64,000 bases of DNA from assembly GCF_048403405.1 (NCBI RefSeq), contig NZ_CP183129.1; one strand, written 5' to 3'. The stretch is from Escherichia coli (lineage in GTDB: Bacteria; Pseudomonadota; Gammaproteobacteria; Enterobacterales; Enterobacteriaceae). This document shows positions 34,201 through 37,200 of this stretch, piece by piece (the first letter of the stretch is position 1; each line of letters starts with the position of its first letter). The position numbers are program-made.

Positions 34201-37200
34201 TTTGCTGGCGGCAGTTCAGCTGACACTGGTATTATTTTGTTTTCCAGTGCCGCACATTTAGCTTCAAGCGCATCGAATTTACGTACCAGGTACTCAGCAT
34301 TTGTTTCATTCACTTTCAGATCTCGTGGTACACATTTCCCGCGAAGAAACCCTTCCATTTCGAAAACATTCATGCGCATTTGCGTAACTCCGATAACTCG
34401 TTAAAACGTTCCATAAACATCCCGTAGGCATGGCCTGGCGACAGTGGAATCACTTTGAACATCTCTGTTGCCGGGATACCTTCCAGTACAGGCCAGAAAG
34501 AGCTATCATCAAGCCCGAGATCGCGGCGTTCGGTTGCCAGCATGATGAGATCGGCATATTTCACGGGCGTGCTCATAACCGGGGGTAACCCGTATTTCTC
34601 ACGGATTACGGCGTCTATTTTTTCTTCCATCCGTTTATAGTCAGGAAGAAGGCGTTTCAGTGGAGCGGGAATATCCTGGCAATACGCTTCTGTTGCATCA
34701 TGCATTAACGCTTCAAAAGCAAATTCCTGCGGCACCAGCTGGCTGCAAAGCACCGCATGTTGGGCGACACTGTAGAAGTGAGAAAGATGATCGGCAAAGC
34801 GGCAGATATTTGAAAGGGAAACCGCGATATCGTTAATCACGATGTCGTCTTTATTTATCCTGTCATAATAAAAATGCTTCCCGGAAAAAGTTTTAATAAA
34901 TGACATTTTGTTCTCCACGTTATATGCGCTGCACCGCTCTGAATTTTGATTGCAGCAATCCAGCCCATTTGACATGGGATGATTGCTGCAATTTTTTTAA
35001 GTTGTTGGATTTTGGCTTTTATCTTCTTTGTAAGAAAGAAGGTCACACATCAAATTAACTACCTTGCTGAATTGGAAAAGGTCAGCGCCAGTCTGATGAC
35101 GCCACTGGAATGCTTTATCATCTTCATCATTAAATGTCTGAGATTGAGTATTGATGCGCGAAAAATGGAAATTTTCGGTAAGAATGAAGGTCACACCGCA
35201 ACCGGATAACTCCATTTTATCAGCAGTGAAACTACTACTAAGGCTATCGGCCAGTTCGCTTTGAATTGACTCATGCTCAGCTGAGTAGCGAATAATTTCC
35301 TTTTGATCTGCGTAGCGTGATAGCTGAATATAATTTCCGACAGTGAATCCTTCAAATGCATTGGCTGCACCATTGATGTAGTTATTCAGGCGTGTAGTCA
35401 GTCCATTCTTGATATCACTGATGTTGATTGTTTCTGTTTTCACTGAACCGACAACCTTAATCAGCATTGCGCATACCATACCGGCTATTATTTTATTGGT
35501 TGTGTTGATTACCAATAATTTCTCATCAGTGCTGTACAATGCAAGAATCAGCGTAGACTTAACAAATGCCTGTTTGCATAGATCTACTCGTACGTTATCA
35601 ATAATGGCCAGTCGTTCGGCACGCTTTAATTTATTCCCGGACATATTTTCGATTGTTTGGATTCGAGAATTAGCTTCTTTCATGACGACATGTCGGGGAA
35701 TTATTTTCTGATCATGACGGATTACCATTGCGTACCCACCAGATATCGGAGTTACCAGTTCACCAGTGACAGGATTCTCTACAAAAGAGGACCGTGAAAA
35801 TTCTGTTTCCCCGATTTCAGAATAAGGGAGTTCGAGAAGATGACCTTCAATAGCCTGTATACTAGGTAATGTTGCTCGGTACACAATTGCGTTACGAAAT
35901 TTTGGTAATTTCATTCTATTTTCCTCTGCACAATGTATTAGTTTCTCCACAAAACAGAGAAGAACACCTGCGGTGGCAGCCGCCCGGATGGATTGGGTTA
36001 TGAGCCCGTCGTCCGGTGATGCTCTTCTCTGTTTTGTAAAAAGAGCGGTACCAGCCGGAAGCAAGTGTACAAACTGGTACCGCCAAAGCAGTGGCTGTTG
36101 TGGTGACCGGTGCTGATCTCCGGCTTGCGGTTATTTCAGACTCTCACGGGCGTTTAATTGCCCCGCCGAACAGCTCTTTTCCGCAATAGCTGCAATGTCT
36201 TTCGCGCATCAGCCTGCGCATTCACCACAACGCTAAGGATTCTCTCTGGTTGAAAATACTTAGCTGTTATGTGCCTGCTTTTAGCCACATCAGGCGAGGT
36301 GGACCTGGTTATTCCCCAACAACAAGGATTTGGTTATTATGTAACCCTCCCCAACAACGATAAGGATTTATATGGATCTATGTGTAGATAAGTATGAGGA
36401 GAGGCATGTGCCGTTAAGACAAAAGCCTCCAGTTCCTCCAAAACCACCCAAGGAAAACTGAGACTAATATGACCAGAGACGATTATAAATTTTATGTTCA
36501 CTACTCTTATGTATTGGAGAAGATGAATTACACGTTGTTAACTCGCATTGATAAATTAATAACGTTGATGTTAATCGTTCTCGGTTTTTCAGTTTTCGCC
36601 CCGTACAGTAATTTATTTATTTTCGGTTTGTTTGTTGCCGTACTTTCGGTTCTTCAGTTGGTCTATCAGTTTGGCCAAGAGGCTGGAATGTCTAAAGAGC
36701 AAGCGAGGCATTACAAAAGACTGCTGATTGAGTCTGATACCCTTCCTGAAGATCAGTTGCAAGCTAGGTATTTAAAAATCCAAGATACTGATAGTAATCC
36801 ATGGAAATCACTTGAACGAGCGGCTTTCATTCGGGCCTGTATTTTTGCTGGTGTTCCAACTAAGTACGATTTAACAACCAAAGAAAAATTTATAGCTTGG
36901 TGTGCGGGAGATCTACCTCTAGAGAATGAACTAACGGATATTAATGATGACCAACAAGCATAATCCAGTTCACGGACATGTACCTCCGAAGCCGAAACCA
37001 CCGAAACCGAAGAAATGAGACATAATAGGATTGGATAATGAGTCGACCAATAGAGCCTTTTCATATTCCACCTCGTCCCAGGCCACCAGATCCAGGCCCA
37101 AAGTGAGGGTTACTGATTTTTAAAGAGCGAAGCGTCCGGTAGGGCGCTTTTTTGGTACTAACGAATCATCCTGGACTTCATATGCCCCAGGCGGCTACTT

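Follow-up and report, generated by a model that had tools for sequence, protein, structure and literature searches.

Paired repeats upstream of the cargo cassette

The window, by which we mean the whole 64-kb stretch of DNA that was analysed, represents a lambdoid prophage of Escherichia coli SCU-482, and the element under study is a pair of direct repeats that lies in a leader in its immunity region, directly upstream of a cassette of four open reading frames (ORFs) on the plus strand (36372–37106). The genes are arranged in the order rdgC (minus strand), leader, cassette (plus strand), repressor (minus strand) and cro (plus strand), and the same order is found in phages P22 and lambda; the repressor of the window is of the LexA family. 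The repeat region reads ggttatt-CCCCAACAAC-a-AGGATTT-ggttattatgtaaccct-CCCCAACAAC-gat-AAGGATTT-at-ATG. Repeat copy 1 (CCCCAACAAC-A-AGGATTT) occupies positions 36314–36332 of the plus strand (36313–36332 with the preceding T), and repeat copy 2 (CCCCAACAAC-GAT-AAGGATTT), which corresponds to the predicted 5′ end of the cassette mRNA, positions 36349–36369 of the same strand (36348–36369 with the preceding T). The distance from the start of copy 1 (36314) to the start of copy 2 (36349) is 35 bp, and the ATG of the first ORF of the cassette, micro-ORF1 (36372), stands 2 nt past the end of copy 2. When both strands of the window were searched for the exact 10-mer CCCCAACAAC, it was found only at the two repeat copies, and the composite motif CAACAAC-N0-3-AAGGATT gave two matches against 0.01 expected (100 shuffles); the repeat sequences, the 35-bp spacing and the place just 5′ of micro-ORF1, all taken from a preliminary description of the region, were thereby borne out. 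A repeat search also returned a weaker third copy, CCACAACGCTAAGGATT, at 36225–36241, which is part of a different upstream element (see below).

The leader is homologous to the PsieB–sas region of P22 and lambda

The leader of the window aligns over its full length with the sequences upstream of sieB in P22 and lambda, and the alignment takes in a 31-nt motif, a hairpin (hairpin 1), a −10 hexamer and copy 2. The P22 leader reads gtgcctgtcttttaaccacgtcaggctcggtgg-TTCTCGTGTA-CCCC-TACAGCGAGAA-atcggataaactctattc-ACCCCTACAG-agagtaaaaagagaatcgccg-ATG. In P22, the antisense RNA sas blocks translation of SieB and spares translation of Esc (Ranade & Poteete 1993, cited in PMC7067206 and PMC12197685), and P22A-sas, an RNA of 127 nt whose sequence is given in Table 2 of a 2026 small-RNA study, was seen by RNA-seq (PMC13397905). 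The sequence of P22A-sas given there is the exact reverse complement of the P22 leader (L139:3637–3763) and comprises, in order from its 5′ end, a tail antisense to the first codon and to the whole leader including copy 2, hairpin 1, the 31-nt motif and a further 16 nt. The conserved leader therefore has a double identity, acting as promoter PsieB when read in one direction and as the gene for sas when read in the other. The later reviews gave no detail on how sas is made, and no Rfam family matches the leader locus, even at E ≤ 1.

Judged by its sequence, the window leader is a member of the P22/lambda PsieB–sas family, and its cargo is not. By homology with the 127-nt P22A-sas, the ends of a predicted sas-like antisense RNA were placed at 36256–36376 (minus strand). 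As in P22, a rightward gene lies antisense inside the early-left operon near the immunity repressor. The P22 repeat is CCCCTACAG with a spacing of 34 bp, whereas the window has a type A repeat, CCCCAACAAC, with a spacing of 35 bp, and the P22 cargo is SieB/Esc, whereas the window carries an unrelated cassette with a micro-ORF and a protein with two transmembrane segments (two-TM protein). Furthermore, the window, which is known here from sequence alone, differs from P22 in having no N-type antiterminator gene between the candidate early-left promoter pL and the cassette (no N-like ORF lies between the repressor and rdgC among the ORF calls of the window). Lambda (NC_001416, ~34396–34481) carries the same module in front of sieB, with the copies TACCCCTACAG and AACCCCTACAG; it differs from the window in its type B repeat and its SieB cargo, and the lambda record has no annotated promoter or RNA at this place. 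What is new in the window is the different repeat type and the new cargo; the control system was already known.

A predicted sigma-70 promoter on the plus strand

The P22 record places the sieB promoter at 29690–29720, where it extends over copy 1 as far as the −10, and lists a sieB RNA start site at position 29727; this base is the A that immediately precedes the CCCC of copy 2. The counterparts in the window are a −35-like hexamer TTCCCC (36312–36317, plus strand), which is overlapped by copy 1, itself placed like the −35 and upstream spacer of the annotated P22 sieB promoter, and a −10 hexamer TATTAT (36335–36340, plus strand), which lies between the copies and is the homologue of the P22 PsieB −10 (TAAACT). 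Across two-copy leader variants (described below), a plus-strand TAnnnT was present at the −10 position in 59 of 59, beginning 12–14 nt before the C-run of copy 2 (for example TATAAT, TAAAAT, TAATAT, TATATT or TAATCT), and the −35 position coincided with T(T/A)CCCC, that is, with copy 1. A minus-strand −10 between the copies was excluded, the corresponding match being found in only 3 of the 59 variants. Taking over the P22 geometry, the start of cassette transcription is predicted at 36348 (± 2 nt, plus strand), 8 nt after the −10, and the cassette transcript should start near this position, the first base of copy 2. A promoter element for the cassette, putatively of the sigma-70 type, is supported by the homology with the annotated P22 sieB promoter and RNA start and by the uniform TAnnnT, in line with the suggestion in the preliminary description that the repeats form a promoter element.

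The promoter scan reported no sigma-70-like site in or near the leader, and inspection by eye revealed no convincing match to sigma-32, sigma-E or sigma-54 promoters in the leader. Candidate hexamers for other promoters near the 31-nt motif were wrongly spaced by eye and were discarded. An ATG–TAA start–stop pair at 36339–36344, preceded by the AAGGA of copy 1, shares bases with the −10 and comes before the predicted RNA start; other type A leaders lack this pair, which is therefore probably meaningless.

A widespread leader with exchangeable cargo

A BLAST search with the 134-nt leader (36238–36371) against 5426 complete E. coli genomes found it, whole or in part, in at least 2159 genomes, with at least 80% of the query covered in at least 838, and the leader is also present in phages of Shigella, Salmonella, Klebsiella, Hafnia and Cronobacter. 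The core conserved among e14-like, Rac-like and Qin-like prophages consists of GTGCCTGCTTTTnnCCACnTCAGGCnnGGTGG, a gap of ~10 nt, TTCCCCAACAAC-AAGGATT, a gap of ~15 nt, and TCCCCAACAAC. Homology ends right after the second CCCCAACAAC, and each locus then runs into a different plus-strand gene; the downstream genes belong to PHROGs 1244, 3983, 5286, 6315 and 8894, none of which has an assigned function. Because the leader homology ends at this point, the AAGGATT of copy 2 is merely the Shine-Dalgarno sequence of micro-ORF1 (AAGGA, 36362–36366, within copy 2), and in other loci this half of copy 2 is swapped for the ribosome-binding site of the respective cargo gene. The conserved repeat unit that remained after the comparison is (T/A)CCCC(A/T)ACA(A/G), positions −1 to +8 relative to the C-run. 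Two other explanations were also set aside: CsrA sites, for which the GGA in AAGGATT had been considered, were rejected since several repeat types have no GGA after copy 1, and the homology breakpoints that adjoin the repeat copies are explained by the swap of cargo directly after copy 2, so that the copies need not be read as recombination boundaries.

A scan of IMG/VR with the 31-nt motif yielded at least 120 stretches. Together with other loci, IMG/VR provided a set of 85–86 distinct leaders, about 60 of which have two copies. The copies are 33 bp apart in 31 leaders, 34 bp apart in 24 and 35 bp apart in five, the last being the lineage of the window, and the repeat type differs by subfamily (CCCCAACAA, CCCCTACAG, CCACAGTCA, CCCCAACGA, CCCCAATGC and others). 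The copies co-vary in 59–65 variants: identity between the two copies of one locus is 0.88, compared with 0.65 across loci, and none of 10,000 permutations gave a within-locus identity as high. The co-varying block comprises 10 nt, −1 to +8 from the C-run, over which within-locus identity is 0.89–1.00, with a drop to background immediately outside; its left edge is the mapped RNA start of P22. When 57 leaders were grouped by the genes that follow them, they were found before 16 unrelated cargo clusters, one cargo family occurring behind several repeat types and one repeat type before many cargo families. The type A repeat was found beside four immunity regions, with a LexA-family repressor, YmfK, RacR and a Qin-type region, respectively. 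With the same leader standing before at least 16 unrelated cargo families, the earlier view that the element is dedicated to the cassette of the window proved to be wrong.

Single-copy leaders (e14 ymfI, SfV, Cronobacter and others) have an extended −10, TGGTAnnnT, directly after GGTGG, and in their hairpin, composed of anti-Shine-Dalgarno, loop and Shine-Dalgarno, the arm and the loop overlap the 5′ end and the Shine-Dalgarno sequence of the mRNA directly. The genes behind such a leader include ymfI of the K-12 prophage e14 (L006) and an unannotated plus-strand ORF of SfV (L002); the SfV record annotates an opposite-strand ORF there, orf33, which may be a mis-call. Since single-copy leaders exist and the two-copy form looks like one unit doubled, the repeats could be a functionless trace of a ~34-bp tandem duplication of a promoter-proximal unit. 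We regard such an origin without function as improbable, because at least five types keep the 10-nt block 89–100% identical while flanking and intervening bases reach background; a single old event would need selection for likeness, and independent events would need the same boundaries each time.

The C/A-rich look of the type A repeat raises the question of a role on the mRNA, either as a translational enhancer or as a target site of GcvB or of the distal face of Hfq. CAACAAC matches the consensus of GcvB R1 targets, CACAACA (PMC4104026), AAC-AAC-AAG constitutes an (ARN)3 run, and copy 2 lies just upstream of the Shine-Dalgarno sequence. A similar C/A-rich CAACAAC motif beside a ribosome-binding site is known from AgvB of enterohaemorrhagic E. 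coli prophages, which, unlike the leader of the window, lies 3′ of PR′ in the late region (PMC4104026). However, the C/A-repeat character is lacking in leader types such as CCCCTACAG and CCACAGTCA, copy 1 precedes the start site and would be absent from the mRNA, and predicted duplexes with E. coli GcvB were no better than those of shuffled leaders for any type (442 of 500 shuffles were as good in the case of the window), making this the least plausible of the explanations considered.

A conserved hairpin and an invariant motif on the antisense strand

Hairpin 1 (36304–36327, minus strand; 5′-CCUUGUUGUU-GGGG-AAUAACCAGG-3′) contains the complement of repeat copy 1. The underlying inverted repeat runs from just past GGTGG to just past copy 1, with the C-run as its loop. 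When folded as RNA, 53 of 59 variants gave a stabler hairpin from the minus strand than from the plus strand (mean −9.1 versus −6.0 kcal/mol), the A.C and C.A mismatches of the latter turning into G.U pairs in the former. In a minus-strand alignment of 36 sequences, 7 of the 11 pairs showed changes on both sides, and the number of double-change cells amounted to 52, compared with 18.7 ± 4.9 in shuffles (none of 500 shuffles was as high). When the 3′ partners were shifted by 1–3 columns, pairing dropped from 92% to 35–46%. The antisense strand of the leader carries a conserved stem-loop, which shows compensatory changes and is specific to the minus strand.

Next to hairpin 1 lies the 31-nt motif TGCCTGCTTTTAGCCACATCAGGCGAGGTGG (36272–36302, minus strand), the 3′ domain of the predicted sas-like antisense RNA. 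It occurs once in the window, with none expected, and a motif search found no second copy of the leader module elsewhere in the 64 kb. The motif lies within the published P22A-sas RNA. Leaving aside 5–6 positions in its loop, it is invariant in P22 and lambda, in prophages of the e14, Rac and Qin types and in at least 120 contigs of IMG/VR. The helices that it could form (GCCUG/CAGGC and CCAC/GUGG) are invariant, so there is no covariation to count for an H-type pseudoknot, and a scan for SieB relatives returned close relatives only, with almost no variation in the motif. One variant of the motif, CAAGC, would give a G.U pair on the minus strand.

These data bear on the proposal of the preliminary description that the repeats are a tandem regulator-binding site, in other words two DNA sites at the −35 and the start site through which a protein would repress or activate the cassette promoter. 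Such sites would fit the constant spacing of 33–35 bp, which is about three helical turns, the joint change of both copies, and the −35 and +1 positions, which are typical of repressor sites. On the other hand, the repeat type tracks neither the cargo family nor the immunity repressor, a single type being shared by the four immunity regions named above; the copies have no dyad symmetry; and copy 1 is part of an RNA hairpin of the minus strand with G.U pairs and compensatory changes. The co-varying block, moreover, opens exactly at the RNA start, which points to RNA and not to a DNA-binding protein. The proposal is therefore unsupported, and we consider protein-binding DNA sites quite unlikely. 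Nor do the repeats behave like an oL-type operator of the immunity repressor, as four repressors occur with one repeat type and the oR region uses ACTAAG/CTTAGT. These half-sites are common to the cI–cro intergenic region and to a candidate early-left promoter pL (TTGCCA-17-TAGATT, 37237–37265, minus strand) that was identified by promoter scan and its ACTAAG operator half-sites. Leftward transcripts running across the cassette and the leader presumably originate from candidate pL.

A different use of the repeats within the antisense RNA would be an arm swap, in which the 3′ arm of hairpin 1 pairs with the complement of either copy 1 or copy 2 and thereby masks or exposes the tail. Both complements are present in one RNA, ~34 nt apart, and the alternative pairing in P22 would retain 8 of 10 pairs. 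The part that the copies share most strictly, however, is the four loop bases (CCCC/GGGG), which are unpaired in both conformers, and the outer arm (+9 to +13) is not shared, with a within-locus identity of 0.4–0.6. An arm swap thus seems unlikely to us, if slightly less so than DNA sites or a duplication trace.

A model for silencing of the cassette by the antisense RNA

The homology with P22 and lambda, the hairpin of the minus strand and the co-variation of the copies are direct observations, and the promoter, RNA start and sas of P22 are annotated in the homologue. On this basis we propose that the repeats are two parts of a portable PsieB–sas-type module in which complementarity between the hairpin and the mRNA 5′ end must be preserved, an explanation that we hold to be probable, with reservations given below. 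On the plus strand, a sigma-70 promoter would express the cassette in the lysogen, copy 2 providing the first 10–11 nt of a 24-nt mRNA leader, at the end of which the ribosome-binding site of micro-ORF1 would lie. Early transcription that runs leftward through the cassette on the minus strand, either after induction or from a superinfecting relative, would give rise to a sas-like RNA of ~120 nt, the 5′ part of which would be antisense to the mRNA leader, followed by hairpin 1 in the middle and the invariant 31-nt motif at the 3′ side. In hairpin 1, the GGGG loop and the inner 5′ arm form the complement of copy 1 and, since copy 2 has the same sequence, are also complementary to nt 1–10 of the predicted mRNA. 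With the left edge of the co-varying block at the RNA start, the partners of these ten nucleotides are the loop, the closing base and the five inner bases of the 5′ arm. We suggest that the mRNA, by its 5′ end, pairs first with the loop of hairpin 1, after which pairing would spread down the arm to the Shine-Dalgarno sequence and translation of the cassette would be shut off during lytic growth, in the way that RNA-OUT of IS10 acts on RNA-IN.

In IS10, the 5′ end of the mRNA (RNA-IN) pairs with the loop of RNA-OUT, and pairing spreads down one arm and covers the ribosome-binding site. The hairpin of RNA-OUT overlaps the 5′ end of the mRNA, as in the single-copy leaders. IS10 shows no sequence relationship to the module, and unlike the hairpin of RNA-OUT, the two-copy hairpin of the window lies off the mRNA, its complementarity being achieved via the direct repeat.

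In line with the proposed pairing, duplexes were predicted for the mRNA leader with only the hairpin-1 strand, the tail being left out; they averaged −23.7 kcal/mol for cognate partners and −22.5 kcal/mol for same-type partners from other loci, compared with −13.6 kcal/mol for partners of different types. Pairing begins at nt 1 of the mRNA in these duplexes, and in 42 of 51 variants it comes within 8 nt of the start codon. In the window, the predicted duplex covers CUCCCCAACAAC...AAGGAUUU including the Shine-Dalgarno sequence and has an energy of −28 kcal/mol (11 of 500 shuffles were as good). Pairing that begins at the loop appears to be the simplest joint account of the co-variation, the sharp edges of the block, the inclusion of the loop and the fixed spacing, and we infer that it is the reason why the two copies are kept identical.

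Several points weigh against this model. The −35 (TTCCCC) is weak, and the fold of the whole antisense RNA of the window is unexceptional (z = −0.87). The antisense RNA already has full complementarity to the mRNA leader in its 5′ tail, which makes an extra hairpin look redundant, and the inner arm of hairpin 1 is itself base-paired and would need to open. The mechanism does not account for the invariant 31-nt motif. Finally, the start site, the antisense RNA and its ends, as given for the prophage in the window, are presumptive and were transferred from P22.

A further possibility, which we put forward tentatively and regard as rather doubtful, is that the 10-nt block acts as a specificity code, such that the hairpin of an incoming or induced phage would silence any resident exclusion or defence gene behind a leader of the same type, irrespective of its product. 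If this were true, types such as CCCCAACAA, CCCCTACAG and CCACAGTCA would be silencing classes, the module would be a plug-in expression/counter-silencing cassette for prophage defence genes, and an arms race between lambdoid phages, fought at the level of RNA, would drive the diversification of repeat types. We found no earlier account of a shared, cargo-swappable module, of the 10-nt co-variation that sets in at the RNA start or of the minus-strand specificity of the hairpin, in a survey outside which the original P22 papers lay.

The cassette and neighbouring elements

The four ORFs that the leader is predicted to drive are micro-ORF1 (36372–36461), a gene for a 164-aa two-TM protein (36469–36963), micro-ORF2 (36944–37018) and micro-ORF3 (37038–37106), all of them ORF calls on the plus strand. 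Within its family, micro-ORF1 codes for a peptide of 26–29 aa (..YEERH(V/M)PP..PPPKP..), and the two-TM protein, which belongs to phrog_6315 with no assigned function, is 150–164 aa long. The gene order with proline-rich micro-ORFs is kept in three divergent phage loci (L045, L093 and L048), and a proline-rich peptide of the family has 24–25 aa (..PP.PRPP.P.PKPK). Because the cassette is kept as a unit in divergent phage contigs, the micro-ORFs were taken to be real genes. No match to Pfam, NCBIfam, PADLOC or an annotated PHROG was found for the cassette, and the 164-aa protein is unrelated to P22 SieB (E = 5; PHROG 6315 versus 1301 and 6399). Motifs of the PRPRPP type are reminiscent of proline-rich peptides with ribosome-stalling or ribosome-binding activity. 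The cassette ends in an intrinsic terminator at 37130–37153 (plus strand), read from the sequence as AAGCGTCC-GGTA-GGGCGCTT with a T run after it. On the minus strand, a boxA-like sequence, CGCTCTTTAAAAA (37117–37129), lies just downstream of candidate pL and is followed by a small hairpin, an arrangement that is nutL-like.

Upstream of the leader, positions 36096–36237 are occupied by a ~140-nt element whose ends form a perfect 10-bp inverted repeat (GTTGTGGTGA ... TCACCACAAC), and the weak third repeat copy straddles its right end. Copies with 98% identity are present in phages P1 and RCS47, in Salmonella phage IME207 and in E. coli plasmids, and e14-, SfV- and Kati-type prophages have the same termini with an unrelated interior. 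Multi-branch folds were obtained for both versions, with z between −2 and −3; the sequence may be a small mobile element or else give a structured RNA that forms part of the early-left transcript. Further upstream, a long hairpin with 25-nt arms (35949–36037) is adjoined by a second hairpin (36045–36083) with a T run behind it on the minus strand. Lying just upstream of rdgC, the two hairpins (35949–36083) may terminate or attenuate leftward transcription, and the region is conserved, without annotation, in Stx, mEp460 and SfV phages.

In the early-right operon, the segment 39252–39453 matched C4-type antisense RNA with 82 bits and isrK with 69 bits; a match to the a1/b1 target region scored 44.3 bits, slightly under the gathering threshold of 46.7 bits. 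These matches lie inside the 5′ part of an ORF annotated by RefSeq as a Rha family phage regulatory protein, and by its sequence the segment looks like a secondary immunity system of the P1/P7 style.

Significance for lambdoid prophages

The paired repeat is real and functional-looking, and what was an unannotated intergenic repeat is now placed within the control system of P22 and lambda. The complementarity between mRNA and hairpin offers a testable reason for the conservation of the repeat, and the antisense RNAs form a family that is missing from Rfam. The invariant 31-nt motif can serve as a marker, the genes behind it being prophage-expressed cargo with likely exclusion or defence functions. 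The PsieB–sas-type leader emerges as a widely shared, swappable module at the sieB position, which drives many unrelated and mostly uncharacterised prophage genes.

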